A DNA stretch of 21,316 nucleotides, taken from the IMG/VR virus record IMGVR_UViG_3300045988_115137; one strand, given 5' to 3'. The first letter of the stretch is position 1, and each line of letters opens with the position of its first letter. This document shows positions 97-16,438 of this stretch, in pieces. The position numbers and the translations under genes were made by a program. Origin of the DNA: a virus. Lineage: Duplodnaviria; Heunggongvirae; Uroviricota; Caudoviricetes. The notes under the pieces are model-generated. The model searched no databases, was not told the origin of the DNA, and saw nothing but the letters and a program-made list of their open reading frames with translations.

Positions 97-1092
97 TTAT
101 GGACGCATTATGGACATTCCTGACACCGGGTTAAGAGTCACAGCATCTTGTAAGAAATCCGGTGCAAAGTGTGCGTAGGTCATAGTTTGCTGAATGTTAG
201 AATGACCCAGGATGCGCTGCAATGTGATTATGTTACCTCCATTCATTATAAAATGTGTGGCAAATGTATGCCTCAAAACATGCACTGCCTGTCCGTCAGG
301 TAAATCGGGTTTTACTTCCCTGAGAGCGTTGCGCACTTTGTAGTAACTGGCATTAAAAAGCCTGCCAGAATTTTTGGTTTTGATCCGTTTAATCAAGTCC
401 TGCGAAACGGGAATTGTCCTGCGCTTTCCGTTTTTAGTTTTCATAAACGTAACCATCTGGTTAATGATGTGTTCAGCTTTTAAATTAGACACTTCACTCC
501 AGCGTCCACCAGTAGAAAGGCAGACTAGAGTTGCATTTAATTCATCACCATCGAGCATGGATAACAGCCGCGTAATCTCTTCACTGGACAAAAAAGCCAT
601 TTCCGTAACAGCTTCACGTAACCGCTTAACCTCACGGAACGGGTTATGAGAGTGGTATTCACCGGCGTCAATTAATTTGGTGAACATTCCACTCATTATT
701 GCCAGATGCCGATTTACGCTGGCTGGTTTTAGGCCATCGTTCATCATTACAACGCGATAATCAGTTATCGTTTTCTTTGTTAGCTGGTCAGCTCTGGACA
801 CTCCCATTTCTGCAAATTTGGCGATTATTGTCGTTAAACGCCCCCGTTCAATATCCCCCCGCTCATGCGATTTTCCGTGATATATCCACCATCGGCCTAA
901 CAACTCGGTAAGAGTTCGGCGATCGGCTGGTTTCTCTATCCACTCTTTGTTGTGGTAGTTAACCAAGACATGACGCTCGAATGCCTGAGCTTCACCTTTA
1001 GTTTTAAATTTCCGCCTGATACGTTTCCCATCTGCACCCTGCGGCCTGACGTCCACTTCATAACGACCATCATCGAGCTTTTTAATAGACAT
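97..1092 (-). CDS. int: Tyrosine recombinase / phage integrase (P2 Int-like)
   Basis: 331-aa ORF (coordinates include stop). The C-terminal translation shows tyrosine-recombinase catalytic signatures (HVLRHTFATHF and GHSNIQQTMTYAHF). The minus-strand ATG at 1090-1092 is preceded by a GGAGGG Shine-Dalgarno. It sits at the prophage edge, divergent from the early operon, as in P2. Confidence 0.9.
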   Translation of the reverse strand: MSIKKLDDGRYEVDVRPQGADGKRIRRKFKTKGEAQAFERHVLVNYHNKEWIEKPADRRTLTELLGRWWIYHGKSHERGDIERGRLTTIIAKFAEMGVSRADQLTKKTITDYRVVMMNDGLKPASVNRHLAIMSGMFTKLIDAGEYHSHNPFREVKRLREAVTEMAFLSSEEITRLLSMLDGDELNATLVCLSTGGRWSEVSNLKAEHIINQMVTFMKTKNGKRRTIPVSQDLIKRIKTKNSGRLFNASYYKVRNALREVKPDLPDGQAVHVLRHTFATHFIMNGGNIITLQRILGHSNIQQTMTYAHFAPDFLQDAVTLNPVSGMSIMRP

Positions 1093-1185: not shown

Positions 1186-1485
1186 TCAGCCAATCTTTTG
1201 ATCTGAGTGGTGCAAGGTTGTTGAGTCTTGCCCAATGTGTGCGAGAGCTGGGGCTATTTGACCAGCTGCGGGATCAGTTTCATCAAACATGAACCAGTCA
1301 CGGTATTTACGGAATCTTGGATGTTTTAGAAGCCGCACCACTGCATCATGTGAAATAGATGATTTCCCATTTTCGTACCCTACATACGTAACGTAATTAA
1401 TACCTGTCATTTCAGCTACTTCCTTCTTCTTGAGCCGTTCAGACTCACGGATAAGTTTTAGCTTTTCACGAATCTCAATTGACAT
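1186..1485 (-). CDS. C: Immunity repressor (P2 C-like)
   Basis: 99-aa ORF, the length I recall for P2 repressor C. The C-terminal segment (GQIAPALAH...HSDQK) resembles my recollection of P2 C. It lies between int and the divergent early operon. Confidence 0.75.
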   Translation of the reverse strand: MSIEIREKLKLIRESERLKKKEVAEMTGINYVTYVGYENGKSSISHDAVVRLLKHPRFRKYRDWFMFDETDPAAGQIAPALAHIGQDSTTLHHSDQKIG

Positions 1486-1589
1486 AATGAATCAGATCTC
1501 TTATTTTTAATCCGTTGTGATATTCCACATCTAACTCTAGTCAACTCCAACTAGCTTTAGTTAGTGGGGCCAATTAGGAGAATAGCAAA
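1486..1589. promoter_or_regulatory. Divergent lysogenic/lytic switch region (putative Pc/Pe promoters and operators)
   Basis: 104-bp AT-rich interval between the divergent starts of C (1485, minus) and the cox-like gene (1590, plus). It contains reiterated AACTC / CTAG elements at about one helical turn spacing (1533-1560) and an AGGAG SD at 1576-1580. Exact -35/-10 and operator positions were not resolved. Confidence 0.4.
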
Positions 1590-1946
1590 ATGAATGTCGG
1601 ATCTGAAATTTCTGACGAGACAAGACAAGAACTCTCCGTTCTCACAAAAGCAAAGCGTGATTCCGTTAAATTGGCGGCGGCACCATCAGATTTGCTGTCG
1701 AAAGAAGGTTTTGCACTGTACATCGGCAAGACACCACGAGCGGTGGCTGAAATGGCGAAAGCAGGAAAGCTGCCAGCCTTTTACATGACAGACCCATTAA
1801 AGCCGGGAGGTCATGCTGAGTTATGGATTAATCGTCGTGAGTGGGACAAGTATGCAGCACAGCTAGTCGATGAAGCTCCATCAGAATGGCACGACTGGAA
1901 AAATCGCATTAGTTATAGCAAATCAAGACATGGCCGTGCGGCTTAA
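1590..1946 (+). CDS. Cox/Apl-like excisionase-transcriptional regulator (putative)
   Basis: 118-aa ORF, first gene of the rightward early operon directly opposite C, with AGGAG 10 nt upstream of the ATG. The position matches P2 cox, but the protein is longer than the 91 aa I recall for P2 Cox, so the assignment is by synteny only. Confidence 0.55.
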   Translation: MNVGSEISDETRQELSVLTKAKRDSVKLAAAPSDLLSKEGFALYIGKTPRAVAEMAKAGKLPAFYMTDPLKPGGHAELWINRREWDKYAAQLVDEAPSEWHDWKNRISYSKSRHGRAA

Positions 1947-1956
1947 GGTGGAAAGG

Positions 1957-2127
1957 ATGAAGGAGCCGCGTTGTATTGCTCAGTTATTGCGTAACGAAAG
2001 CCCCAGGGCGATTGACTTCACCATCACCCACGGTAAGGGGCGTAAGGGAATCATTATCCGTACCAAAAAACAGAGTCCGTTAAAAAAGGCTCTGACCTTT
2101 CTGAAAAGCCGGAGGGTCTGGAAATGA
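1957..2127 (+). CDS. Small basic hypothetical protein (orf78-position early gene)
   Basis: 56-codon ORF from ATG 1957 (track lists a longer 1870 start inside cox). It is preceded by AAGGTGGAAAGG, and its TGA overlaps the ATG of the next gene (ATGA at 2124-2127), suggesting translational coupling. Confidence 0.4.
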   Translation: MKEPRCIAQLLRNESPRAIDFTITHGKGRKGIIIRTKKQSPLKKALTFLKSRRVWK

Positions 2128-2624
2128 CAGTGATGACACTTAATCTCGTCGAAAAACAGCCAGCAGCTATGCGCCGGATAATTGGTAAGCATCTGGCCGT
2201 CCCTCGCTGGCAGGAGACATGTGATTATTATAATCAGATGATGGAACGTGAACGGCTAACGGTTTGCTTCCATGCGCAGTTAAAACAACGTCACGCAACG
2301 ATGCGTTTCGAAGAAATGAACGATGTCGAACGTGAACGGCTGGTTTGTGCAATTGATGAATTGCGTGGGGCATTCTCAAAACGCCGTCAGGTCGGTGCAA
2401 GTGAGTATGCATATATTAGTTTTTTAACAGTCAGTCAGCGGCGTACTTTATTTATGCATGCCGGATTGACAGAAAAAGAATTCAACCAGCCATACTGGCG
2501 AATTAATGAAGAATCATGTTACTGGCGTGATGCTTTATTCCGTGCATTACGTGAATTATTCAGTCTGTTTGAGTATGCACCGACAATTCTGACGTCGGTA
2601 AAACCAGAGCAATATCTGCATTAA
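2124..2624 (+). CDS. B: P2 B-like replication protein (putative helicase-loader)
   Basis: 166-aa ORF, the length I recall for P2 B, at the syntenic position between cox and A. GGAGGG SD upstream. Assigned by synteny and size only. Confidence 0.5.
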   Translation: MTVMTLNLVEKQPAAMRRIIGKHLAVPRWQETCDYYNQMMERERLTVCFHAQLKQRHATMRFEEMNDVERERLVCAIDELRGAFSKRRQVGASEYAYISFLTVSQRRTLFMHAGLTEKEFNQPYWRINEESCYWRDALFRALRELFSLFEYAPTILTSVKPEQYLH

Positions 2625-2687
2625 GTAATTAACCAGAGTTTTTAACGCACTTAATCGTGCGGGGCTTCTTTTTGCCTGGAGAAAGTT

Positions 2688-2912
2688 ATGCATACAGTTT
2701 CTGAAAATCAGTGCGGTAAATACGCATTACTGCTGCAACAGGCCAGAACCGAAGCACAGGCCGACGCTGCGACGCGCTTTTCTTCTCATCTTGATGCCAT
2801 GATTCGCCACATCACAAAGGCGGAGTTATCCCGCGTGGAGATAGTCGAGCTGCTCAGTCAGGAGTCGGAAAAATTTCACAATATCGGATTGTCTCGCGGG
2901 GAGGTGCTTTGA
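2688..2912 (+). CDS. Hypothetical early protein (orf80 position)
   Basis: 74-aa ORF with GGAGAAAG SD 4 nt before ATG 2688; its stop overlaps the next start (TGATG). Confidence 0.5.
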
Positions 2913-3214
2913 TGTCCTGTTCTCGTTCAGTTGTATTACTGAATAACGCCTTAAAAATCGCCGTTATGAAAAATGGCGATTTGTCTCTTATTCAACTTGG
3001 TCTTGATAAAGAAAAACGCGAAATAACTGAGTCTGTTATCGCGATTTATCAGAACGAATTAAACCTCCTGTCTGATGTGGTCAATTTACTTGTTAAACGC
3101 GCTGTGTTTCACAAGCAAATTTCCTCCGTGGATGAACTGACGAAATTAACGACAGAAATCGCCAGCTATTGCGCTGATGAATTTAAAAAACTGAACGACA
3201 AAAGGAACTGGTAA
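2912..3214 (+). CDS. Hypothetical early protein (orf81 position)
   Basis: 100 aa from ATG 2912 (track start 2909 is a TTG). GGGAGG SD upstream; stop/start overlap (TAATG) with the next gene. Confidence 0.5.
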   Translation: MSCSRSVVLLNNALKIAVMKNGDLSLIQLGLDKEKREITESVIAIYQNELNLLSDVVNLLVKRAVFHKQISSVDELTKLTTEIASYCADEFKKLNDKRNW

Positions 3215-3438
3215 TGCCGGACAACGTAGATTTTATTCAGGAACAACAGGCTGAATTACTGGAGCGCCAGATTAACGCGGCAAGGGTAAAACATTGCGGT
3301 GCTTCTGCGCTGGTTTGCGAAGAGTGTGACGCGCCAATACCTGCTGCCCGTCGTGCGGCTTACCCGTCAGCCACGCGTTGTGTTTCCTGTCAGTCAGTCT
3401 TTGAAGCAAAAAACAAACATTACCGGAGAACGGCATGA
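3214..3438 (+). CDS. TraR/DksA-family C4 zinc-finger protein
   Basis: 74-aa ORF with two CxxC pairs (VCEEC ... RCVSC) in the arrangement typical of phage TraR/DksA-like zinc-binding proteins. Syntenic with P2 orf82. Coupled to neighbours by overlapping stop/start codons. Confidence 0.7.
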   Translation: MPDNVDFIQEQQAELLERQINAARVKHCGASALVCEECDAPIPAARRAAYPSATRCVSCQSVFEAKNKHYRRTA

Positions 3439-3710
3439 GTATTCGTATTGAAATTGGCGAACGTTATGTCGTTACCAGTGACAGCTTTCAGTTTATTCTC
3501 CACGAGAAAAAGAGAGCGGAAAGCGGTAAAAACGCCGGTCAGGAATGGCTGGCGGTGGTTGGTTATTACCCGAAATTAAGCCAGCTCGTTTCCGGCCTGA
3601 TGCATCACGATATTCTGACCGGAAGCGCAAAGTCTTTTGCTGATTTAAACGCGCAGGTTGAGCAACTCAGCAAGCGTTGTTCAGAGGCTTTTGGCTCATA
3701 TGGCCGTTAA
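3435..3710 (+). CDS. Hypothetical early protein (orf83 position)
   Basis: 91-aa ORF; ATG 3435 overlaps the upstream stop (ATGA); its 3' end overlaps the start of A by 11 nt. Confidence 0.5.
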   Translation: MSIRIEIGERYVVTSDSFQFILHEKKRAESGKNAGQEWLAVVGYYPKLSQLVSGLMHHDILTGSAKSFADLNAQVEQLSKRCSEAFGSYGR

Positions 3711-5979
3711 AGCCTCCGGGCGTTTTGTCCCTCCGTCAGCATTTGCCGCAGGCACCGGTGAGACGTTTACCGGTGCTTATGCATGGAACGCGCCACGCGA
3801 GGCCGTCGGGCGCGAAAGACCCCTTACACGTGACGAGATGCGTCAGGTGCAAGGTGTTTTATCCACGATTAATCGCCTGCCTTACTTTTTGCGCTCGCTG
3901 TTTACTTCACGCTATGACTACATCCGGCGCAATAAAAGCCCGGTGCACGGGTTTTATTTCCTCACATCCACTTTTCAGCGTCGTTTATGGCCGCGCATTG
4001 AGCGCGTTAATCAGCGCCATGAAATGAACACCGACGCGTCGTTGCTGTTTCTGTCAGAGCGTGACCACTATGCGCGCCTGCCTGGAATGAATGACAAGGA
4101 GCTGAAAAAGTTTGCCGCCCGTATCTCATCGCAGCTTTTCATAATGTATGAGGAACTCTGCGATGCCTGGGTGGATGCGCATGGCGAGAAAGAATCGCTG
4201 TTTACGGATGAGGCGCAGGCTCACCTGTATGGTCATGTTGCTGGCGCTGCACGTGCTTTCAATATTTCCCCGCTCTACTGGAAAAAATACCGTAAAGGGC
4301 AGATGACCACGAGGCAGGCATATTCTGCCATTGCCCGTCTGTTTAACGATGAATGGTGGACTCATCAGCTTAAAGGCCAGCGTATGCGCTGGCATGAGGC
4401 GTTACTGATTGCTGTCGGGGAGGTCAATAAAGACCGTTCTCCTTATGCCAGTAAACATGCCATTCGTGATGTGCGTGCGCGCCGCCAGGCAAATCTGGAA
4501 TTTCTTAAATCGTGTGACCTTGAAAACAGGGAAACCGGCGAGCGCATCGACCTTATCAGTAAGGTGATGGGCAGTATTTCTAATCCAGAAATTCGCCGGA
4601 TGGAGCTGATGAACACCATCGCCGGTATTGAGCGTTACGCCGCCGCAGAGGGTGATGTGGGGATGTTTATCACGCTGACCGCGCCGTCAAAGTATCACCC
4701 GACACGTCAGGTCGGAAAAGGCGAAAGTAAAACCGTGCAGCTTAATCACGGCTGGAACGATGAGGCATTTAATCCAAAGGATGCGCAGCGTTATCTCTGC
4801 CGTATCTGGAGCCTGATGCGCACGGCATTCAAGGATAATGATTTACAGGTCTACGGTTTGCGTGTCGTCGAGCCACACCACGACGGAACGCCGCACTGGC
4901 ATATGATGCTTTTTTGTAATTCACGCCAGCGTAACCAGATTATCGAAATCATGCGTCGCTATGCGCTCAAAGAGGATGGCGACGAAAGAGGAGCCGCGCG
5001 AAACCGTTTTCAGGCAAAACACCTTAACCGGGGCGGTGCTGCGGGATATATCGCGAAATACATTTCAAAAAACATCGACGGCTATGCACTGGATGGTCAG
5101 CTCGATAACGACACCGGCAGGCCGCTGAAAGACACTGCAGCGGCTGTTACCGCATGGGCGTCAACGTGGCGCATCCCGCAATTTAAAACGGTTGGCCTGC
5201 CGACAATGGGGGCTTACCGTGAACTACGCAAATTGCCGCGCGGCGTCAGCATTGCTGATGAGTTTGACGAGCGCGTCGAGGCTGCACGCGCCGCCGCAGA
5301 CAGTGGTGATTTTGCGTTGTATATCAGCGCGCAGGGTGGGGCAAATGTCCCGCGCGATTGTCAGACTGTCAGAGTCGCCCGTAGCCCGTCGGATGAAGTT
5401 AACGAGTACGAGGAAGAAGTCGAGAGAGTGGTCGGCATTTACGCGCCGCATCTCGGCGCGCGTCATATTCATATCACCAGAACGACGGACTGGCGCATTG
5501 TGCCGAAAGTTCCGGTCGTTGAGCCTTTGACTTTAAAAAGCGGCATCGCCGCGCCTCGGAGTCCTGTCAATAACTGTGGAAAGCTCACCGGTGGTGATAC
5601 TTCGTTACCGGCTCCCACACCTTCTGAGCACGCCGCAGCAGTGCTTAATCTGGTAGATGACGGTGTTATCGAATGGAATGACCCGGAGGTCGTGAGGGCG
5701 CTCAGAGGTGCATTAAAACACGGCCTGAGAAGACCAAACCGTCAGCAAAGAAACGGAAGCCCGTTAAAACCGCATGAAATAGCGCCATCGGCCAGACTGA
5801 CCCGGTCTGAACGATTGCAAATCACCCGTATCCGCGTTGACCTTGCTCAGAACGGTATCAGGCCGCAGCGATGGGAGCTTGAGGCGCTGGCGCGTGGCGC
5901 GACCGTAAATTATGACGGGAAAAAATTCACGTATCCGGTCGCTGATGAGTGGTCGGGATTCTGGCATCAATTTGAGTAA
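3700..5979 (+). CDS. A: Rolling-circle replication initiator endonuclease (P2 gpA-like)
   Basis: 759 aa from ATG 3700 (MAVKASGRF...); the track start at 3658 is a TTG codon. An HUH-type motif (PHWHMMLF) and a paired-tyrosine motif (GYIAKYISK, Y-x3-Y) are visible. Size is close to the ~761 aa I recall for P2 A. Confidence 0.9.
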   Translation: MAVKASGRFVPPSAFAAGTGETFTGAYAWNAPREAVGRERPLTRDEMRQVQGVLSTINRLPYFLRSLFTSRYDYIRRNKSPVHGFYFLTSTFQRRLWPRIERVNQRHEMNTDASLLFLSERDHYARLPGMNDKELKKFAARISSQLFIMYEELCDAWVDAHGEKESLFTDEAQAHLYGHVAGAARAFNISPLYWKKYRKGQMTTRQAYSAIARLFNDEWWTHQLKGQRMRWHEALLIAVGEVNKDRSPYASKHAIRDVRARRQANLEFLKSCDLENRETGERIDLISKVMGSISNPEIRRMELMNTIAGIERYAAAEGDVGMFITLTAPSKYHPTRQVGKGESKTVQLNHGWNDEAFNPKDAQRYLCRIWSLMRTAFKDNDLQVYGLRVVEPHHDGTPHWHMMLFCNSRQRNQIIEIMRRYALKEDGDERGAARNRFQAKHLNRGGAAGYIAKYISKNIDGYALDGQLDNDTGRPLKDTAAAVTAWASTWRIPQFKTVGLPTMGAYRELRKLPRGVSIADEFDERVEAARAAADSGDFALYISAQGGANVPRDCQTVRVARSPSDEVNEYEEEVERVVGIYAPHLGARHIHITRTTDWRIVPKVPVVEPLTLKSGIAAPRSPVNNCGKLTGGDTSLPAPTPSEHAAAVLNLVDDGVIEWNDPEVVRALRGALKHGLRRPNRQQRNGSPLKPHEIAPSARLTRSERLQITRIRVDLAQNGIRPQRWELEALARGATVNYDGKKFTYPVADEWSGFWHQFE

Positions 5980-6068
5980 GGATCTCATCTATACAGTATA
6001 AGTAGTTTTGACTGTAATTGATTGTTTTTTATATGGTTGCATGCATTAAATCTACGTCAATATCATTA

Positions 6069-6077
6069 TGTTATAAT
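6069..6077 (+). promoter_or_regulatory. Extended -10 promoter element (TGtTATAAT) for the plus-strand cargo operon
   Basis: Exact TGnTATAAT match at 6069-6077, about 29 nt upstream of the first cargo ATG (6106), in an AT-rich leader. The -35 is weak. The palindrome TTGCATGCA (6037-6045) lies where a -35 or operator would be. Confidence 0.4.
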
Positions 6078-6105
6078 GCATTACTTAAAAATGTTGGAGA
6101 TAAAA

Positions 6106-6297
6106 ATGTTAAAGCCTGCAGATGTTAATTGTTTGAAAAGCGGTGGATTTAAAATGACTGTATCTGACTCTACTGAAACTCATGCTAAATGTATTTGGCA
6201 TGATAAAGAAGGAGTTTTGCACGAGGAGTCATTCTCCATTGATTTACTGGAAATAGCAGAGAGTAAAAGTGGTATGCTTTGTCGTCCACGTAAGTGA
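6106..6297 (+). CDS. Small hypothetical protein, first gene of the cargo operon
   Basis: ~63 codons from ATG 6106, with GGAG at 6096-6099. The track's 91-aa version starts at a TTG at 6022. Alternative in-frame ATGs exist at 6091 and 6154, so the start is uncertain. AT-rich; ends 27 nt before the 226-aa gene. Confidence 0.35.
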   Translation: MLKPADVNCLKSGGFKMTVSDSTETHAKCIWHDKEGVLHEESFSIDLLEIAESKSGMLCRPRK

Positions 6298-6324
6298 ATC
6301 ATAATAAAATTCACGGGGGAAAGT

Positions 6325-7005
6325 ATGAAACAATACAGCGAATTAGAAAACAATGTTAAGAGATTCATTGTTGAGCATGAAAAAGGGATTTCTATTGATG
6401 ATATTCATCATAAGTTCCGGATGAAGGATGGTCAGAATCGCAAGATGGCAGATTATCTTATTGATAATAAAAAGATAATTTTGGAGATGAAAAGTCTTTT
6501 TTCTGACAGGGTCAAGAATGTCAATGATAAACTGAATGAGTTGGTTAAAACTGATAGTTGGCTTGCAAAAAACTGGCATGGTGCTATTCATTTAGAAGAG
6601 TTGATAAAAAGACACCCAGACTCAAAGCGATTTAGAAATGATATAATGAACTTTGCTTATGAAAATATTAAAACAAAGATAGTTAAGGAAGCTAATAAGC
6701 AAATAAATGCAACAAAGGATGTTTTGGATTTAAATGACTCGATTGGCGGGTTGATTTTGTTAAATGATAATGTCTTTTCACATGAGTCTAATTATTTGTC
6801 AGATGAAATATTATATTTGCTAGGCACAAAGAGATATTCGAGTGTTGAGTTTGTGGTTTATATTGCAAAATTGATTGATAAACAGGTTGATGTTTGTGTG
6901 CTACTTGACAGTCAATCTAAAAATAAAAATTATATTGAATGGTATATGAATAATGTTTTTTTATTGAACTGGGCGTCTTTTAATAAATATGCAATAAAGA
7001 TGTAG
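6325..7005 (+). CDS. Hypothetical protein, candidate anti-phage defense component (226 aa, no recognisable domain)
   Basis: Clean ORF with a strong SD (GGGGGAAAG) 6 nt before ATG 6325. Lys/Asn/Ile-rich composition; about 30% GC by hand count of 6301-6360. Sits at the A-cos variable locus in the tin-like position and orientation. No Walker A, HNH, reverse-transcriptase or zinc-finger motif seen. Confidence 0.6.
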   Translation: MKQYSELENNVKRFIVEHEKGISIDDIHHKFRMKDGQNRKMADYLIDNKKIILEMKSLFSDRVKNVNDKLNELVKTDSWLAKNWHGAIHLEELIKRHPDSKRFRNDIMNFAYENIKTKIVKEANKQINATKDVLDLNDSIGGLILLNDNVFSHESNYLSDEILYLLGTKRYSSVEFVVYIAKLIDKQVDVCVLLDSQSKNKNYIEWYMNNVFLLNWASFNKYAIKM

Positions 7006-7324
7006 TGGTGTGGATGGATATGAAATGAGTCAACCAAGATGCACCTTGGTCAGTAATCTCATGTGAGATACCACATATAACACCAAAAGTGTCAGGTTGA
7101 TGGCCATTGTTCACCGTTTACAGCAGATTATGGTCAACGAAAATCTGACGCCTGACGAGCTGGTCGGGTGTGCCGAAATAGTCTGGGATAATTACGGGCG
7201 GTTTAACTATATCGGTCAGTCCAGAGTTGCGCCACCACCACGCAGACGATAGAGAACGCCGCCAGTCGTGAAACTTGTTTTCAGGCTGGCGGGGTTGAAC
7301 AACGAGCGAAGTGAGGCGTTAGCA

Positions 7325-8266
7325 TTAAGTTAATTTTAATGAATGGTACTCTATCGAGCTGATTGTAGATGCGATATATTTACGATCATTTACAGAGAGT
7401 ATTGCCGCTAGTAGACGACATACCAGAGCCTGCATTTGTAGCAATATATCGCTACCATATTGACAATCATTGATACTAGAGAAACCAAGCGGTTGCCCAT
7501 TAAAAATGGCTTCATGAAAATTATCATTGCGTATAACTGAAACATTACATTCATCTGTTGCCCATGACGGGATTTTTACACCGTAATTTTCGCACATCCA
7601 ATATACTCTATTTTGATGAGATGGTTTTTTCTCTTTAATGACTTTATCCCTTTCATCCCATGCTATAGCAAAACAGCAATCAAGAGCCATATAAAGATAC
7701 TGGAATTTCTCAAAGGAAAGGTATAGTGGGTTATGTGACAGGAATAGGGAGTGTATCACCGCAGCTATTCTTTTAATGGAGCGATCATCTTTTTGTTTGT
7801 CTTTTATATAGTTAAGTGCTAGCTCTATTACTTCTTTTTCAGAGCATCCAACGAGAATAAAGTCGGTTAACTTAGTGGGCTTGATAGTGGTTGCATCAAG
7901 AAAACCAGCGTCAGTGGTTGTCAATCTTATACCCTTGAAAAAAGAGAGGCACCACACAACAAAGTTGAGAGTTTCTAACGAGGATGTGTTTTTTAATTTT
8001 AGTGTGTGCGTTTTGGGCATGCCGAATACTCGGTAACTATAAGGCATTGTGCATGTGTCACCATTAAGGTTATATACCTTTCGATTCCCAGGGTATATCC
8101 AACCATTAACAACGTTTTTATCATTGTTAATACGTTCCACGTTCTCAATAAGACCGGGTAAAGTACGCAAAGAAAATTGTTCAGTCTCAATGTTAACTTC
8201 TACTGGATAGTATCCAAACTCCGAAATAATCTCATTTGGTTGCTGTTCGTCAACTTCACCTTGCAT
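7325..8266 (-). CDS. Hypothetical protein, candidate anti-phage defense/abortive-infection component (313 aa, no recognisable domain)
   Basis: ORF with ATG at 8264-8266 (minus) preceded by GGAGAAAG at 6-nt spacing. AT-rich. Transcribed leftward from the cos-proximal side, like old in P2, but it lacks the Walker A/ATPase signature expected of Old. Confidence 0.6.
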   Translation of the reverse strand: MQGEVDEQQPNEIISEFGYYPVEVNIETEQFSLRTLPGLIENVERINNDKNVVNGWIYPGNRKVYNLNGDTCTMPYSYRVFGMPKTHTLKLKNTSSLETLNFVVWCLSFFKGIRLTTTDAGFLDATTIKPTKLTDFILVGCSEKEVIELALNYIKDKQKDDRSIKRIAAVIHSLFLSHNPLYLSFEKFQYLYMALDCCFAIAWDERDKVIKEKKPSHQNRVYWMCENYGVKIPSWATDECNVSVIRNDNFHEAIFNGQPLGFSSINDCQYGSDILLQMQALVCRLLAAILSVNDRKYIASTISSIEYHSLKLT

Positions 8267-8504
8267 AACTTTCTCCGTTCAAAAACAGGCACGATAATTC
8301 TCGTAAGCCTATCATGTTCGCAAAGTATCCATACCTGTGGATTTTGTAAATTTAAGTTGATTTGTCATTAAATAAGCCGTTGCATGCAACAAGTGAATGT
8401 TTTTGCATGCGTCGGGGATGTCCGTTCAGGCTGCGTGCGGTCAGGACTGGTGCGGATCCATAGTATCTATGCAACTGCATTAAAACCGCCCCATGAAGCG
8501 GGCG

Positions 8505-8523
8505 GGCGAGGCGGGGAAAGCAC
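8505..8523. other. cos site (19-nt cohesive end sequence, P2-type)
   Basis: The sequence GGCGAGGCGGGGAAAGCAC at 8505-8523 matches the P2 cohesive-end sequence as I recall it. It lies between the variable locus and portal gene Q, as in P2. Confidence 0.6.
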
Positions 8524-8555
8524 TGCGCGCTGACGGTGGTGCTGATTGTATTTTT

Positions 8556-9725
8556 TCAGCGTCTCAGCGCGTCGTGACGGCGCTTAGTCTGCCCGTTGAG
8601 GCGTTGTGTGTCTGCGGGGTGTTTTGTGCGGTGGTGAGCGTGTGAGGGGGGATGACGGGGTGTAAAAAAGCCGCCCGAAGGCGGGGAGGTTATGCGCTGG
8701 TCAGTGTCCAGTGAGTAGTTTTTAAAGCGGATGACCTCCTGACCGAGCCAGCCGTTTATTTCCCGAATTCTGTCCTGTAACGGGATAAGCTCATTGCGGA
8801 CAAAGACCTTTGCCACTTTCTCAATATCTCCCAGTGACCCGACGTTCTCCGGCTTGCCGCCCATCAACTGAAAGGGGATACGGTGCGCGTCCAGCAGGTC
8901 AGCGGCGCTGGCTTTTTTGATATTAAAAAAATCGTCCTTCGTTGCCACTTCACTGAGCGGGATAATTTTAATGCCGTCGGCTTTCCCCTGCGGGGCATAG
9001 AGAAACAGGTTTTTAAAGTTGTTGCGGCCTTTCGACTTCACCATGTTTTCGCGAAGCGTTTCGATATCGTTGCGATCCTGCACGGCATCGGTGACGTACA
9101 TGATGTATCCGGCATGTGCGCCGTTTTCGTAATACTTGCGGCGGAACAGCGTGGCCGACTCATTCAGCCAGGCAGAATTAAGGGCGCTGAGATATTCCGG
9201 CAGGCCGTACAGCTCCTGATTAATATCCGGCTCCAGCAGGTGAAACACGGAGCCGGGCGCGAAGGCTGTCGGCTCGTTGAAGGACGGCACCCACCAGTAA
9301 ACATCCTCCTCCACGCCACGACGGGTATATTTGGCCGGTGAGGTTTCCAGTCTGATGACCTTACCGGTGGTGCTGTAACGCTTTTCCAGAAACGCATTAC
9401 CGAACACCAGAAAATCCAGCACAAAGCGGCTGAAATCCTGTTGCGAAAGCCACGGATGCGGGATAAATGTCGAGGCCAGAATATTGCGTTTAACGTAAAT
9501 CGGTGAGCTGTGATGCACGGCAGCACGCAGGCTTTTTGCCAGACCGGTAAAGCTGACCGGCGGCTCATACCATCTGCCGTTACTGATGCACTCGACGTAA
9601 TCCAGAATGTCACGGCGGTCGAGTACCGGCACCGGCTCACCAAAGGTGAATGCCTCCATTTTCGGGGCGCTGGCGGTCATTGTTTTTGCCGCAGGTTGCG
9701 GTGTTTTCCCTTTTTTCTTGCTCAT
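8556..9725 (-). CDS. Q: Portal protein (P2 gpQ-like); ORF as found carries a probable C-terminal read-through extension
   Basis: 389-aa ORF starting MSKKKGKTPQ..., with its ATG overlapping the stop of P (TGATG). I recall P2 Q as 344 aa. The last ~45 codons are Pro/Arg/His-rich and cross the terminator hairpin, so the true product probably ends near plus-coordinate 8691. Confidence 0.85.
   Translation of the reverse strand: MSKKKGKTPQPAAKTMTASAPKMEAFTFGEPVPVLDRRDILDYVECISNGRWYEPPVSFTGLAKSLRAAVHHSSPIYVKRNILASTFIPHPWLSQQDFSRFVLDFLVFGNAFLEKRYSTTGKVIRLETSPAKYTRRGVEEDVYWWVPSFNEPTAFAPGSVFHLLEPDINQELYGLPEYLSALNSAWLNESATLFRRKYYENGAHAGYIMYVTDAVQDRNDIETLRENMVKSKGRNNFKNLFLYAPQGKADGIKIIPLSEVATKDDFFNIKKASAADLLDAHRIPFQLMGGKPENVGSLGDIEKVAKVFVRNELIPLQDRIREINGWLGQEVIRFKNYSLDTDQRITSPPSGGFFTPRHPPSHAHHRTKHPADTQRLNGQTKRRHDALRR
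8664..8685 (-). terminator. Putative intrinsic terminator at the end of the leftward P-Q late operon
   Basis: On the minus strand a GC stem CCGCC / GGCGG with a 4-nt loop is followed directly by TTTTTT (plus strand: AAAAAA 8664-8669, then CCGCC-CGAA-GGCGG 8671-8684). Confidence 0.45.
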
Positions 9726-11497
9726 CAGTAAAACTCCAGAATGGTGGATGTCAGCGGGGTGCTGATACCGGCGGTGAGTGGCTCATTTAACAGGGCGTGC
9801 ATGGTCGCCCAGGCGAGGTCGGCGTGGCTGGCTTCCTCGCTGCGGCTGGCCTCATAGGTGGCGCTGCGTCCGCTGCTGGTCATGGTCTTGCGGATAGCCA
9901 TAAACGAGCTGGTGATGTCGGTGGCGCTGACGTCATATTCCAGACAGCCACGGCGGATAACGTCTTTTGCCTTGAGCACCATTGCGGTTTTCATTTCCGG
10001 CGTGTAGCGGATATCGCGCGCGGCGGGATAGAACGAGCGCACGAGCTGGAACACGCCGACACCGAGGCCGGTGGCATCAATTCCGATGTATTCGACGTTG
10101 TATTTTTCGGTGAGTTTGCGGATGGATTCAGCCTGAGTGGCAAAGTCCATGCCTTTCCACTGGTGACGCTCAAGTATTCTGAATTTGCCACCGGCCACCA
10201 CCGGCGGTGCCAGTACCACGCATCCGGCGCTGTCGCCACGGTGTGACGGGTCGTAACCAATCCATACCGGTCGGGAGCCGAACGGATTTGCGGCAAACGG
10301 CGCATAGTCTTCCCATTCTTCCAGCGTGTCGACCATGCAGCGTTGCAGCTCCTCGAACGGGAATACCGACGCCTTGTCGTCAACAAATTCACACATGAAC
10401 AGGTTTTTAAAATCGTCGGCGCTGTTTTCGCGTTTAAGCTGCTCAATGTCGAACAATGTGCAGCCACCTTTCAGGGCGTCCTCAATGGTGACAATCTGCC
10501 GCCACTGGCCGTCCGCACAGAGAAGACCTCCGGCAAGGGCGTTATGACTGACGTCGATTTCCACGCGTTCGGCGGCGCTGGCGCGTCCCCGGTTAAACAG
10601 TTCACCGGACCAGAACGGATAGGCGTCGTGCGCCAGCGTGGACGGGGTGGAGAAATAGGTCGAGCGCAGGTGACTCTGTGAGGCCATACCTGATGCCACC
10701 TTACGCAGTACCTGAAAATTCGGGATCCAGAAAATCTCGTCGACGTACAGGTCGCCGTTATGGCTCTGTGCGGTGTTGGAGTTGGTGCCGAGAAAAATCA
10801 GTTTTGCGCCGTTATTGCCCAGGACAATCGGGTCACCGGTCAGGTCAACGTCAACCAGCCGGGCAAAGGCGATGATGTATTCACGGAACACATACGCCTG
10901 CGTTTTACTGGCCGACAGAAAAATCTGGTTATGACCGGTTTTCAGGGCGCGCAGCAGTGCCTCGCGGGAAAAATAAAACGTCGCGCCAATCTGGCGGGAT
11001 TTCAGGATATCGCGGATGCGGTGCTCAAGCCCGGCGCGATACCAGTGCAACTGATAGTCGAAAGACTGCTCAAAGAAAATCTGCTCCAGCTTTTCGATGG
11101 CCTCGTCACTGAAAAAATTTTTTTTCGGTTTGCGCCGCCCGCCTTTGTTGCGGTTAGCGACGTTCGGATTAAGGTCTGCCTCGTTGCCGGTCTGGCTGTA
11201 ACGATTTACCCGTGCCAGTCGTTCAATCTGGCGTCCCAGCAGGTCAATTTCCTTGAAGTCACCGCCGGTTTTCTGCGGTTTGATGATGAGCTGGGTCAGC
11301 CGCGCTTCCAGGCTCATTTCGACACGGCTGATGGGGGCAACGCTGTCCCAGCCGTCGCGCTGTTTCCAGCTCTGCACCGTCGGGCGTTTCATCTGCAACA
11401 TGGCGGCAATCTGCGGCACGGAAAACCCCTGCCAGTACAGCAGCGCCGCCTGACGACGCGGGTCGTGTAAAAGAGTGGTGTCTGTGGTGATGGTCAT
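9725..11497 (-). CDS. P: Terminase large (ATPase) subunit (P2 gpP-like)
   Basis: 590 aa from ATG 11495-11497 (MTITTDTT...); the track start at 11527 is a TTG. The length matches my recollection of P2 P. Its stop overlaps the Q start. Confidence 0.9.
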   Translation of the reverse strand: MTITTDTTLLHDPRRQAALLYWQGFSVPQIAAMLQMKRPTVQSWKQRDGWDSVAPISRVEMSLEARLTQLIIKPQKTGGDFKEIDLLGRQIERLARVNRYSQTGNEADLNPNVANRNKGGRRKPKKNFFSDEAIEKLEQIFFEQSFDYQLHWYRAGLEHRIRDILKSRQIGATFYFSREALLRALKTGHNQIFLSASKTQAYVFREYIIAFARLVDVDLTGDPIVLGNNGAKLIFLGTNSNTAQSHNGDLYVDEIFWIPNFQVLRKVASGMASQSHLRSTYFSTPSTLAHDAYPFWSGELFNRGRASAAERVEIDVSHNALAGGLLCADGQWRQIVTIEDALKGGCTLFDIEQLKRENSADDFKNLFMCEFVDDKASVFPFEELQRCMVDTLEEWEDYAPFAANPFGSRPVWIGYDPSHRGDSAGCVVLAPPVVAGGKFRILERHQWKGMDFATQAESIRKLTEKYNVEYIGIDATGLGVGVFQLVRSFYPAARDIRYTPEMKTAMVLKAKDVIRRGCLEYDVSATDITSSFMAIRKTMTSSGRSATYEASRSEEASHADLAWATMHALLNEPLTAGISTPLTSTILEFY

Positions 11498-11670
11498 GAA
11501 TACCTCGCCGTGATGAATACACGGCAAGGCTACTGAGTCGCGCCCCGCGATTCGCTAAGGTGCTGTTGTGTCAGTGATAAGCCATCCGGGACTGATGGCG
11601 GAGGATGCGCATCGTCGGGAAACTGATGCCGACATGTGACTCCTCTAATCACTATTCAGGACTCCTGACA
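11498..11670. promoter_or_regulatory. Divergent late promoter region between P and O (putative)
   Basis: 173-bp interval between the divergent P (minus) and O (plus) starts, where P2 places two activator-dependent late promoters. I found no exact TGT-N12-ACA dyad by eye, so this is positional inference only. Confidence 0.3.
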
Positions 11671-12525
11671 ATGGCAAAAAAAGTCTCAAAATTCTTTCGT
11701 ATCGGCGTTGAGGGTGACACCTGTGACGGGCGTGTCATCAGTGCGCAGGATATTCAGGAAATGGCCGAAACCTTTGACCCGCGTGTCTATGGTTGCCGCA
11801 TTAACCTGGAACATCTGCGCGGCATCCTGCCTGACGGTATTTTTAAGCGTTATGGCGATGTGGCCGAACTGAAGGCCGAAAAGATTGACGATGATTCGGC
11901 GCTGAAAGGCAAATGGGCGCTGTTTGCGAAAATCACCCCGACCGATGACCTTATCGCGATGAACAAGGCTGCGCAGAAGGTCTACACCTCAATGGAAATT
12001 CAGCCGAACTTTGCCAACACCGGCAAATGTTATCTGGTGGGTCTGGCCGTCACCGATGACCCGGCAAGCCTCGGCACGGAATACCTGGAATTCTGCCGCA
12101 CGGCAAAACACAACCCTCTGAACCGCTTCAAATTAAGCCCTGAAAACCTGATTTCAGTGGCAACGCCTGTTGAGCTGGAATTTGAAGACCTGCCTGAAAC
12201 CGTGTTCACCGCCCTGACCGAAAAGGTGAAATCCATTTTTGGCCGCAAACAGGCCAGCGATGACGCCCGTCTGAATGACGTGCATGAAGCGGTGACCGCT
12301 GTTGCTGAACATGTGCAGGAAAAACTGAGCACCACTGAGCAGCGCCTCGCTGAGATGGAAAACGCCTTTTCCGCACTTAAGCAGGATGTGACTGACAGGG
12401 CGGATGAAACCAGCCAGGCATTCACCCGCCTGAAAAACAGTCTCGACCACACCGAAAGTCTGACCCAGCAGCGCCGCAGCAAGGCCACCGGCGGTGGCGG
12501 TGACGCCCTGATGACGAACTGCTGA
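11671..12525 (+). CDS. O: Capsid scaffolding protein (P2 gpO-like)
   Basis: 284 aa from ATG 11671 (MAKKVSKFF...); the track start at 11605 is upstream and in frame. The length matches P2 O as recalled. It is directly upstream of the major capsid gene. Confidence 0.85.
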   Translation: MAKKVSKFFRIGVEGDTCDGRVISAQDIQEMAETFDPRVYGCRINLEHLRGILPDGIFKRYGDVAELKAEKIDDDSALKGKWALFAKITPTDDLIAMNKAAQKVYTSMEIQPNFANTGKCYLVGLAVTDDPASLGTEYLEFCRTAKHNPLNRFKLSPENLISVATPVELEFEDLPETVFTALTEKVKSIFGRKQASDDARLNDVHEAVTAVAEHVQEKLSTTEQRLAEMENAFSALKQDVTDRADETSQAFTRLKNSLDHTESLTQQRRSKATGGGGDALMTNC

Positions 12526-12583
12526 CCGGCGTCAGTCAGTCCGGGAAAACCTTCACGATTAACCCTTAATTTCAGGAAAAACT

Positions 12584-13657
12584 ATGCGCCAGGAAACCCG
12601 CTTTAAATTTAATGCCTACCTGTCCCGTGTTGCCGAACTGAACGGCATCGACGCCGGTGATGTGTCGAAAAAATTCACCGTTGAACCGTCGGTCACCCAG
12701 ACCCTGATGAACACCATGCAGGAGTCCTCTGACTTTCTGACCCGCATCAACATTGTGCCGGTCAGCGAAATGAAAGGGGAAAAAATTGGTATTGGTGTCA
12801 CCGGCTCCATTGCCAGCACCACCGACACCGCCGGTGGCACCGAGCGTCAGCCGAAGGACTTCTCGAAGCTGGCGTCAAACAAGTACGAATGCGACCAGAT
12901 TAATTTCGATTTTTATATCCGCTACAAAACGCTGGACCTGTGGGCGCGTTATCAGGATTTCCAGCTCCGTGTCCGTAACGCCATTATCAAACGCCAGTCC
13001 CTTGATTTCATCATGGCCGGTTTTAACGGCGTGAGGCGTGCCGAAACCTCTGACCGCAGCAGCAATCCGATGCTGCAGGATGTGGCGGTCGGCTGGCTGC
13101 AGAAATACCGCAATGAAGCCCCGGCGCGCGTGATGAGCAAGGTCACTGACGAGGAAGGTCACACGACCTCTGAGGTCATCCGCGTGGGTAAGGGCGGTGA
13201 TTATGCCAGCCTCGATGCACTGGTGATGGATGCGACCAACAACCTGATTGAGCCGTGGTATCAGGAAGACCCTGACCTTGTGGTGATTGTGGGGCGTCAG
13301 CTACTGGCGGACAAGTATTTCCCCATCGTTAACAAGGAGCAGGACAACAGCGAGATGCTGGCCGCTGACGTCATCATCAGCCAGAAACGCATCGGCAACC
13401 TGCCGGCGGTACGCGTCCCGTACTTCCCGGCGGATGCGATGCTCATCACGAAGCTGGAAAACCTGTCCATCTACTACATGGATGACAGCCATCGCCGCGT
13501 GATTGAGGAAAACCCGAAACTCGACCGCGTGGAGAACTACGAGTCAATGAATATTGATTACGTGGTGGAAGACTACGCCGCCGGTTGTCTGGTGGAAAAA
13601 ATTAAGGTCGGTGATTTCTCCACACTGGCTAAAGCGACCGCAGAGCCGGGAGCGTAA
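12584..13657 (+). CDS. N: Major capsid protein (P2 gpN-like)
   Basis: 357-aa ORF with ATG at 12584 and an AGGA-type SD; length and position match P2 N. Confidence 0.9.
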   Translation: MRQETRFKFNAYLSRVAELNGIDAGDVSKKFTVEPSVTQTLMNTMQESSDFLTRINIVPVSEMKGEKIGIGVTGSIASTTDTAGGTERQPKDFSKLASNKYECDQINFDFYIRYKTLDLWARYQDFQLRVRNAIIKRQSLDFIMAGFNGVRRAETSDRSSNPMLQDVAVGWLQKYRNEAPARVMSKVTDEEGHTTSEVIRVGKGGDYASLDALVMDATNNLIEPWYQEDPDLVVIVGRQLLADKYFPIVNKEQDNSEMLAADVIISQKRIGNLPAVRVPYFPADAMLITKLENLSIYYMDDSHRRVIEENPKLDRVENYESMNIDYVVEDYAAGCLVEKIKVGDFSTLAKATAEPGA

Positions 13658-13660
13658 CCG

Positions 13661-14404
13661 ATGACGAGTCCCGCACAGCGCCACATGATGCGGGTCTCGG
13701 CAGCGATGACCGCGCAGCGGGAAGCCGCCCCGCTGCGACATGCAACTGTCTATGAGCAGATGCTGGTTAAGCTCGCCGCAGACCAGCGCACACTGAAAGC
13801 GATTTATTCAAAAGAGCTGAAGGCCGCGAAAAAACGCGAACTGCTGCCGTTCTGGTTGCCGTGGGTGAACGGCGTGCTGGAGCAGGGCAAAGGTGCACAG
13901 GATGACATTCTGATGACAGTCATGCTGTGGCGTCTGGATACCGGCGATATTGCCGGTGCGCTGGAGATTGCCCGTTATGCCCTGAAGTACGGTCTGACCA
14001 TGCCGGGTAAACACCGCCGCACCCCGCCGTACATGTTCACCGAGGAGGTGGCGCTCGCGGCCATGCGCGCTCACGCTGCCGGTGAGTCTGTGGATCCCCG
14101 CCTGCTGACGGACACCCTTGAACTGACCGCCACGGCTGACATGCCTGATGAAGTGCGCGCAAAGCTGCACAAAATCACCGGTCTGTTTCTGCGTGACGCT
14201 GGTGATGCCGCAGGGGCGCTGGCACACCTGCAACGTGCGACACAGCTCGACTGTCAGGCAGGCGTCAAAAAAGAGATTGAACGACTGGAGCGGGAGCTGA
14301 AACCGAAGCCGGAGCCACAACTCAAAGCGGCCACCCGCGCCCCGCGTAAGACCCGGAGCGTGACACCGGCAAAACGTGGACGCCCGAAAAAGAAAGCCAG
14401 TTAA
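13661..14404 (+). CDS. M: Terminase small/endonuclease subunit (P2 gpM-like)
   Basis: 247-aa ORF with a basic Lys/Arg-rich C-terminus, directly after N; length matches P2 M as recalled. Confidence 0.85.
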   Translation: MTSPAQRHMMRVSAAMTAQREAAPLRHATVYEQMLVKLAADQRTLKAIYSKELKAAKKRELLPFWLPWVNGVLEQGKGAQDDILMTVMLWRLDTGDIAGALEIARYALKYGLTMPGKHRRTPPYMFTEEVALAAMRAHAAGESVDPRLLTDTLELTATADMPDEVRAKLHKITGLFLRDAGDAAGALAHLQRATQLDCQAGVKKEIERLERELKPKPEPQLKAATRAPRKTRSVTPAKRGRPKKKAS

Positions 14405-14503
14405 CAACCGAATGCGCCCCGCGCCAGGGCGGCACGCCGGTCAGTGTGGGTGAATCACCTGACACTGCACCGGCGTCCACCGCCCTACTTTTCAGAGGTA
14501 GTC

Positions 14504-15013
14504 ATGATGACGCTGATTATTCCGCGAAAGGAGGCTCCCGTGTCCGGTGAGGGTACGGTGGTCATCCCGCAACCGGCAGGCGACGAGCCGGTGATTAAAA
14601 ACACGTTCTTTTTTCCCGATATCGACCCGAAGCGCGTCCGGGAACGTATGCGCCTTGAGCAGACCGTCGCCCCCGCCCGTCTGCGTGAGGCCATCAAGTC
14701 AGGCATGGCGGAGACGAATGCGGAGCTGTACGAGTACCGCGAACAGAAAATTGCCGCCGGTTTTACGCGTCTGGCGGACGTCCCGGCGGACGACATCGAC
14801 GGTGAAAGCATCAGGGTTTTTTACTACGAGCGCGCCGTGTGTGCGATGGCGACCGCATCGCTTTATGAGCGTTATCGCGGCGTGGATGCCAGTGCGAAAG
14901 GCGACAAGAAGGCCGACAGCATTGACAGCACCATTGATGAGCTGTGGCGGGATATGCGCTGGGCGGTGGCGCGTATCCAGGACAAGCCGCGCTGCATCGT
15001 GAGTCAAATCTGA
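14504..15013 (+). CDS. L: Head completion/stabilisation protein (P2 gpL-like)
   Basis: 169 aa from ATG 14504 (MMTLIIPRK...); the track start at 14444 is upstream and in frame. Length matches P2 L; its stop overlaps the X start (TGATG). Confidence 0.8.
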   Translation: MMTLIIPRKEAPVSGEGTVVIPQPAGDEPVIKNTFFFPDIDPKRVRERMRLEQTVAPARLREAIKSGMAETNAELYEYREQKIAAGFTRLADVPADDIDGESIRVFYYERAVCAMATASLYERYRGVDASAKGDKKADSIDSTIDELWRDMRWAVARIQDKPRCIVSQI

Positions 15014-15216
15014 TGAAGACCTTTGCGCTACAGGGCGACACGCTCGACGCCATTTGTGTCCGGTATTACGGGCGCACTGAGGGCGTGGTTGAGACCGTGC
15101 TCGCCGCAAATCCGGGACTGGCTGAACTGGGCGCGGTGCTGCCACACGGCACCGCCGTCGAACTGCCCGACGTTCAGACCGCGCCCGTGGCTGAAACTGT
15201 CAATCTGTGGGAGTAA
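15013..15216 (+). CDS. X: Tail protein X (P2 gpX-like)
   Basis: 67 aa from ATG 15013 (MKTFALQGD...); the track start at 14944 is upstream. Length matches P2 X. Confidence 0.75.
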   Translation: MKTFALQGDTLDAICVRYYGRTEGVVETVLAANPGLAELGAVLPHGTAVELPDVQTAPVAETVNLWE

Positions 15217-15219
15217 CGC

Positions 15220-15501
15220 ATGACAGCAGAAGAAAAAAGCGTCCTGTCGCTTTTCATGATTGGGGTGCTGATTGTTGTCGGCAAGGTGCTTGCCGGTGGT
15301 GAACCCATCACCCCGCGTCTGTTTATCGGGCGCATGTTGCTCGGTGGTTTTGTCTCGATGGTTGCCGGTGTTGTTCTGGTGCAGTTTCCTGACCTGTCAC
15401 TGCCTGCAGTGTGCGGCATCGGCTCCATGCTGGGTATCGCCGGTTATCAGGTGATTGAGATTGCCATTCAGCGCCGCTTTAAGGGCAGGGGGAAACCGTA
15501 A
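15220..15501 (+). CDS. Y: Holin (P2 gpY-like)
   Basis: 93-aa ORF with hydrophobic transmembrane-like segments and a charged C-terminus, directly upstream of the endolysin; length matches P2 Y. Confidence 0.75.
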   Translation: MTAEEKSVLSLFMIGVLIVVGKVLAGGEPITPRLFIGRMLLGGFVSMVAGVVLVQFPDLSLPAVCGIGSMLGIAGYQVIEIAIQRRFKGRGKP

Positions 15502-15998
15502 TGCCGGTAATTAACACGCATCAGAATATCGCCGCCTTTCTCGACATGCTGGCGGTATCCGAAGGGACGGCGAATCATCCGCTGACGAAAAACCGTGGCT
15601 ATGACGTGATAGTCACCGGACTGGACGGGAAGCCGGAAATTTTCACCGACTACAGTGACCACCCGTTCGCGCATGGCCGACCGGCGAAGGTGTTTAACCG
15701 TCGCGGTGAAAAATCCACGGCCTCCGGTCGCTATCAGCAGCTTTACCTGTTCTGGCCGCATTACCGCAAACAGCTTGCCCTGCCGGATTTCAGTCCGTTG
15801 TCACAGGACAGACTCGCCATTCAGTTGATCCGCGAACGCGGTGCGCTGGATGACATCCGGGCGGGACGCATTGAGCGCGCCATTTCACGCTGTCGCAATA
15901 TCTGGGCGTCCCTGCCGGGTGCCGGTTACGGTCAGCGTGAGCATTCACTGGAAAAACTGGTCACCGTCTGGCGTACCGCTGGCGGCGTACCGGCTTAA
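15501..15998 (+). CDS. K: Endolysin (P2 gpK-like)
   Basis: 165-aa ORF directly after the holin; ATG 15501 overlaps the Y stop. Length matches P2 K. Confidence 0.8.
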   Translation: MPVINTHQNIAAFLDMLAVSEGTANHPLTKNRGYDVIVTGLDGKPEIFTDYSDHPFAHGRPAKVFNRRGEKSTASGRYQQLYLFWPHYRKQLALPDFSPLSQDRLAIQLIRERGALDDIRAGRIERAISRCRNIWASLPGAGYGQREHSLEKLVTVWRTAGGVPA

Positions 15999-16012
15999 AC
16001 GGAGTAAACACC

Positions 16013-16438
16013 ATGAAGAAATTATCCCTTTCACTGATGCTGAACGTGTCGCTGGCGCTGATGCTGGCACTGTCCCTGATTTACCCGCAGAGCGTGGCCG
16101 TCAATTTTGTCGCCGCCTGGGCGATTCTGGCGATGGTTATCTGTGTGGTTGCCGGTGGTGTCGGCGTGTATGCCACTGAGTATGTGCTGGAACGCTACGG
16201 GCGGGAGCTGCCGCCGGAATCGCTGGCCGTGAAGATTGTCCCGTCGCTGTTTTTGCAGCCGGTGCCGTGGCGCAGACGGGCGGCGGCTCTGGTTGTGATG
16301 GTGGCGACATTTATCTCGCTGGTCGCTGCCGGGTGGATTTTTACCGCGCTGATTTATCTCGTAGCGTCGCTGTTTTTCCGGCTGATACGCACGGCCTGCC
16401 GTCAGCGTCTTGAGGGGCGGGAATTATGTCAAAGCTGA
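16013..16438 (+). CDS. lysA: Lysis-timing membrane protein LysA
   Basis: 141-aa ORF, strongly hydrophobic with several predicted transmembrane segments; GGAG SD at 16001-16004; P2 lysA position and length. Confidence 0.65.
   Translation: MKKLSLSLMLNVSLALMLALSLIYPQSVAVNFVAAWAILAMVICVVAGGVGVYATEYVLERYGRELPPESLAVKIVPSLFLQPVPWRRRAAALVVMVATFISLVAAGWIFTALIYLVASLFFRLIRTACRQRLEGRELCQS

Follow-up and report, generated by a model that had tools for sequence, protein, structure and literature searches.

The window, i.e. the whole stretch of 21,316 nt that was analysed, is a P2-like (Peduovirus) prophage that adjoins pflA in its relatives. Its genes and sites follow the order int, C, cox, B, A, cargo region, cos, Q, P and late genes (Table 1). 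The portal gene Q lies directly downstream of the terminase gene P and upstream of cos, a position that fits the P2 gpQ type. The Pfam family Phage_portal (PF04860) matched residues 89-327 of the Q product with 53.1 bits against a curated cut-off of 39.1, and residues 1-342 showed 99-100% identity to common alleles of E. coli and IMG/VR. A PDB sequence search with Q returned no match. The P-Q-tQ-cos order, the cos 19-mer and the spacer length are shared with P2 (gpQ: NP_046757.1, 344 aa; genome: NC_001895), and the Q 3′ region shares about 92-96% DNA identity with records of P2-type phages.

Table 1. Coordinates of the features in and around the portal gene and the cargo region of the window.
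Feature	Position	Strand	Remark
int	97-1092	-	first in the gene order
Cargo: DUF2158 small protein	6022-6297		
Cargo: 226-aa ORF	6325-7005	+	
Cargo: 313-aa ORF	7325-8266	-	AT-rich, uncharacterised
Second GC-rich hairpin	8486-8505	-	CCGCCC...GGGCGG and short T run; pattern match only, just past cos
cos cohesive-end 19-mer	8505-8523	+	GGCGAGGCGGGGAAAGCAC; identical to P2 cosL
Extended portal (Q) ORF	8556-9725	-	389 codons and TGA (8558-8556)
45-codon read-on	8556-8693	-	ITSPPSGGFFTPRHPPSHAHHRTKHPADTQRLNGQTKRRHDALRR and TGA 8558-8556; translated terminator and spacer DNA, pI ~12
tQ intrinsic terminator	8664-8684	-	hairpin CCGCC-TTCG-GGCGG 8684-8671, T6 run 8669-8664
Private substitution patch	8678, 8685, 8688, 8692, 8693, 8696, 8697, 8699		8 changes in 22 nt (8678-8699)
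Out-of-frame TAA	8690-8692	-	one base off the Q frame, by-product of the substitutions
Codon 345 of Q	8691-8693	-	ATA here, TGA stop in every relative
Canonical portal coding part	8694-9725	-	codons 1-344
Large terminase gene P	9725-11497	-	

The length and C-terminus of the Q product depart from the P2 gpQ type, which has 336-348 aa and ends in ...YSLDTDN(G/D) followed by the stop; the ORF of the window has 389 aa. The initial annotation had set this length against 344 aa for P2, and this figure was right: Q of P2 (NC_001895) has 1035 nt, corresponding to 344 aa and a stop, and the Q genes of Wphi and phage 10W are equally long. It had also correctly placed codon 345 (8693-8691, which reads ATA) and a TAA shifted by one base from the frame (8692-8690), and had seen that Q reads through the terminator hairpin directly after codon 345 and nearly to cos, from which the end of the ORF is separated by 32 nt. 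The end of Q is ...LDTDND-TGA in P2 and ...LDTDQR-ATA in the window, where the frame runs on for 45 codons.

On the Q-sense strand, relatives read GAC AAC GGC TGA ACATC GCCGCC TGCG GGCGGC, and the window reads GAC CAG CGC ATA ACCTC CCCGCC TTCG GGCGGC. As written in the window, the stretch is CCAGCGCATAACCTCCCCGCCTT (also given as GACCAGCGCATAACCTCCCCGCCTTCGG), and its canonical counterpart is ...GACAACGGCTGAACATCGCCGCCTG... (also given as GACAACGGCTGAACATCGCCGCCTGCGG). Across the end of Q, the window aligns to P2, Wphi, 10W and four E. coli prophages with no gap, and in 261 nt compared with E. coli YZ22PE244 it shows no difference other than the eight substitutions of the patch. In Q, these substitutions change the last two residues from N-G/D to Q-R and TGA to ATA; beyond Q, they alter the spacer, remove the outermost stem pair of tQ and change the tQ loop. 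All eight are transversions, compared with 8 of 51 among the other substitutions against strain LR-24 in the region, and the chance of such a set under this background is about 4e-7 by hand arithmetic. Read along the plus strand, six of the eight patch bases repeat the base that comes next in the canonical sequence (binomial p of about 0.02, calculated by hand and post hoc). Followed in the direction of this strand, the changes start in the loop of the GC hairpin, after the A6 run, and end 15 nt past the hairpin. A shuffle and an inversion of the ancestral 22 nt were also considered as origins of the patch, and both were ruled out by hand on composition and reverse complement.

The predicted tQ of the window has a stem cut from six to five G-C pairs, one pair shorter than that of P2, and a UUCG loop in place of the UGCG loop of P2, with the T6 run kept. 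Its predicted hairpin energy is -9.4 kcal/mol, compared with -14.4 kcal/mol in P2. By pattern, the GC-rich stem-loop and the T run after the end of Q match a rho-independent terminator. The second hairpin, just past cos, is a candidate terminator that could act on transcripts escaping tQ on circular or prophage templates.

The initial annotation had taken the extension for translated non-coding DNA, and the comparison with relatives bore this out: no relative is extended and the frame of the spacer is not conserved. In all 119 close relatives, Q ends in ...TDN[G/D/S] with TGA at codon 345. Among about 160 relatives located by tblastn in IMG/VR and in 80 bacterial species, Q measures 336-348 aa, with a single tally of 356 aa that represents an HSP crossing a stop codon. 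Past its own TGA, the P2 frame likewise runs for 44 codons before it meets a stop, at the TGA that also ends the ORF of the window, and it gives a near-identical peptide, TSPPAGGFFTPRHPPSHAHHRTKHPADTQRLNGQTKCRHDALRR. Since this strand is C-rich, the open frame beyond the stop is attributable to chance; 44 open codons are expected in about 40% of shuffles at this composition. The in-frame continuations after the TGA of the 119 close relatives are 70, 42, 35, 44 or 45 codons long, or have other lengths, and they vary between relatives and run in differing frames because of 1-nt indels in the spacer. Relatives sharing a conserved extended C-terminus, which could have overturned the non-coding reading, were looked for and not found. 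When the full 389-aa product was searched against 5.8 billion proteins, no cluster covered more than 88% of the query and none covered the tail, in searches that return representatives of 90%-identity clusters, behind which an extended member could be hidden. A protein search with the tail alone yielded no extended homologue, its matches being short ORF fragments derived from frameshifts in other assemblies, and the exact 389-aa product is not on record. Judged from these sequence comparisons, the tail is not a coding feature.

Spurious read-ons recur at this site. Five ORF fragments from ENA and Logan (P0001-P0004 and P0018) are frameshifted Q 3′ ends, with the shift for example in the A5 run of ...TTTAAAAACTAC..., and read through the same spacer; three of the five end in ...DALRR. 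These read-ons stem from upstream frameshifts, whereas the window has no shift of frame and loses the stop codon itself by substitution. The tQ-cos spacer also has a 50-aa ORF on its other strand (8493-8645, plus strand), which is recorded as a 'hypothetical protein' in E. coli YZ22PE244 and has similar rows in several phage records. As the spacer carries indels, this ORF is probably an annotation artefact.

The bases of the patch are absent from all 146 homologous loci that cover the region. A 49-nt query centred on the patch matched 1,551 records of complete E. coli genomes, at 1,755 places in all and with a best identity of 41/49; therefore, none of these places carries even one of the patch changes. 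A 33-nt query restricted to the patch had no match in complete E. coli genomes at E<=10, and its matches among phages and plasmids were chance ones of 17-24 nt, to unrelated phages and one plasmid. The patch 20-mer was absent from IMG/VR and from GTDB representatives (one genome per species), and it had one match in JGI metagenomes, to unrelated DNA; a sub-pattern had one match in IMG/VR, which was also unrelated. No patch 12-mers or longer words were present in 80 species-level relatives, 80 IMG/VR loci and about 70 further contigs. In the remainder of the 21.3-kb window, compared with 236 loci, private positions were confined to a singleton at 16241 and a block in the tail-fibre gene.

Gene conversion and template switching are the usual natural sources of such clusters. 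A search for a strand-switch template gave nothing beyond chance 7-mers in the 500 nt to each side and a scatter of 9-10-mers in other parts of the window. The new sequence equals no nearby stretch on either strand, which is not the pattern of a quasi-palindromic template switch. No ectopic template for the patch was found inside the window. With neither a donor nor a template found, gene conversion and template switching therefore have no source here.

The closest known sequences carry the canonical stop. The Logan contig DRR042364_974 (13,993 nt) equals positions 1314-15306 of the window at every base except the eight patch positions, and its portal has 344 aa and the canonical sequence. It is an independent assembly, possibly from a strain other than that of the window. 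The gpA allele of the window is rare, being found in about 20 contigs, all of which except DRR042364_974 differ from it at 85 positions or more; its gpJ allele is common. The genome GCA_049197765.1 shows no difference from the window over positions 8700-16103. The E. coli portal allele WP_047603079.1 (strains YZ22PE244, Ecol_542 and ETEC6) has the TGA stop and a 344-aa product. YZ22PE244 and ETEC6 have 13-14 mismatches to the window in 1,532 nt, eight of which lie in the patch, and Ecol_542 has 15 in 1,650 nt. The patch is thus all that sets the window apart from a near-identical prophage, and it stems either from one event in the very recent past or from an error in this record. The case indicates that one near-identical sister sequence can resolve such questions fast.

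Taking these sequence comparisons together, we consider that the patch is probably a consensus or base-calling error in this record, made beside a GC hairpin and a homopolymer run. In the record, the TGA of Q is overwritten by eight substitutions with no base inserted, and reading continues through tQ and the cos-proximal spacer to the TGA 32 nt short of cos; if the patch is such an error, the prophage itself would encode an ordinary 344-aa portal and an ordinary tQ. The ungapped alignments and flanks that are 100% identical to known alleles speak for an error, and a mixed-phase or compressed signal beside the hairpin looks like a better fit to the patch than ordinary divergence does. Against an error stands the otherwise clean window, which has neither frameshifts nor a second dense cluster of private bases in conserved genes; the assembly is therefore not generally poor. 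It is also unusual for an error to consist of eight miscalls without any indel. The neighbour-copy signature is modest and could also come from dislocation-type polymerase errors in vivo. The initial annotation had traced the extension to a lesion at the stop codon, either an error or a real mutation, and this much held, the lesion being private and no relative being extended. The locus represents no new class of portal and no new biological feature. The practical risk lies in annotation, as a pipeline would call the 389-aa ORF a "phage portal protein" and pass on its spurious C-terminal tail.

A real, very recent, one-off complex mutation in this prophage, by which the stop was lost and the portal gained a 45-residue basic tail, is a rather unlikely explanation of the patch. 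The change is present in the sequence as given, the remaining window bears no sign of poor quality, and the predicted terminator still has a GC stem of 5 bp, a loop of UUCG and its T6 run. However, no other difference from DRR042364_974 occurs over 13,993 nt, and a single event must therefore change 8 of 22 bases. The same mutation would have to consist wholly of transversions, six of them copying an adjacent base. Moreover, no donor or template for the known mechanisms of clustered change was found, nor was a second isolate with the patch among complete E. coli genomes and homologous loci.

The portals of HK97 and Rcc01684 have folded, conserved C-terminal crown or barrel domains, with the extra residues on the capsid-interior side, and the portal of P22 also has a C-terminal crown/barrel domain. 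Compared with these domains, the tail of the window is of low complexity, basic and conserved nowhere. A model of the P2 virion contains only residues 27-340 of gpQ, which lacks a crown domain (bioRxiv 10.64898/2026.09.14.750843), so the space above the portal could hold a flexible tail. The gpQ protein is trimmed at its N-terminus and not at its C-terminus (bioRxiv 10.64898/2026.09.14.750843; PMC7552001); therefore, a tail would persist and would face the capsid interior. If the mutation were real, ribosomes crossing tQ could make transcripts terminate less well before they reach cos and the cargo gene downstream, and the hairpin at 8486-8505 might serve as a back-up terminator. It would amount to a single stop-loss lesion in one prophage, which might affect the assembly of the head and the termination ahead of cos.

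In a further scenario, short-patch recombination or gene conversion brought in sequence of a divergent P2-like phage, or of another terminator, which replaced the end of Q together with the 5′ half of tQ. P2-like prophages are mosaic, and the Q 3′ end has matches at up to three places per genome. In some Enterobacter-type lineages (L096 and L113), Q ends in TAA, after which come C-rich sequence and a CCGCC-TTCG-GGCGG hairpin. Nevertheless, this origin is very unlikely: no donor was found in the fetched loci, IMG/VR, GTDB representatives, JGI metagenomes, complete E. coli genomes, phages or plasmids, and the all-transversion pattern is unlike homologous divergence. Less probable still is a functional portal that sends twelve 45-residue basic tails into the capsid, combined with translation through tQ that suppresses termination. 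Late transcription would in that case be coupled across cos to the 313-aa cargo gene, which lies on the same strand.

The initial annotation had favoured a single-nucleotide insertion at the stop codon, which would have pushed a TAA out of frame. The TAA is indeed one base off the frame, and deleting the A at 8693 would yield a product of 344 aa ending in QR*. The alignments with P2 and P2-like Q genes, however, are ungapped with eight substitutions, and a 1-nt insertion is therefore not the cause; TGA became ATA by substitution. The distance from codon 345 to cos is 170 nt, against 170-173 nt in most relatives. The precursor expected under an insertion, ...CAGCGCTAACC... (CAGCGC-TAACC), was in no fetched locus and its sole IMG/VR match was unrelated. 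Under this model, relatives would be expected to end Q with ...GACCAGCGCTAACCTCC..., whereas the complete E. coli genomes show no match closer than eight mismatches. Seven further substitutions would still be needed, and an insertion is even harder to credit than recombination. Least credible of all is an evolved extended portal or programmed read-through variant, which has the open frame in its favour and nothing beyond it, whereas no relative examined carries it, indels break the downstream frame among relatives, and an open frame of this length has the chance expectation given above.

The cargo region between gpA and cos (6022-8266) occupies the position of P2 tin/old, which has been described as a hotspot of anti-phage genes (Rousset et al. 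2022, PMC9122126). Neither the 226-aa nor the 313-aa cargo protein had a Pfam or PADLOC match, and at least 49 complete E. coli genomes carry this cargo too. The region may be an undescribed defence module. RefSeq relatives name a 51-aa ORF of the cargo region (about 7101-7256, plus strand, equivalent to 8301-8456 of locus L171) 'meiotically up-regulated 80 protein', which is implausible as a name for an E. coli prophage ORF.

Two further sites in the window hold private bases. Position 16241, the sole other isolated one, is an A>C transversion that changes Thr77 to Pro in LysA; the new C equals both neighbouring bases, and no record has exactly this LysA product. Either another small error or a private mutation may account for it. 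The stretch 21170-21305, which lies in the tail-fibre gene at the end of the window, has 26 private positions, with transitions and transversions mixed, and this block looks like a natural divergent allele of a hypervariable gene.
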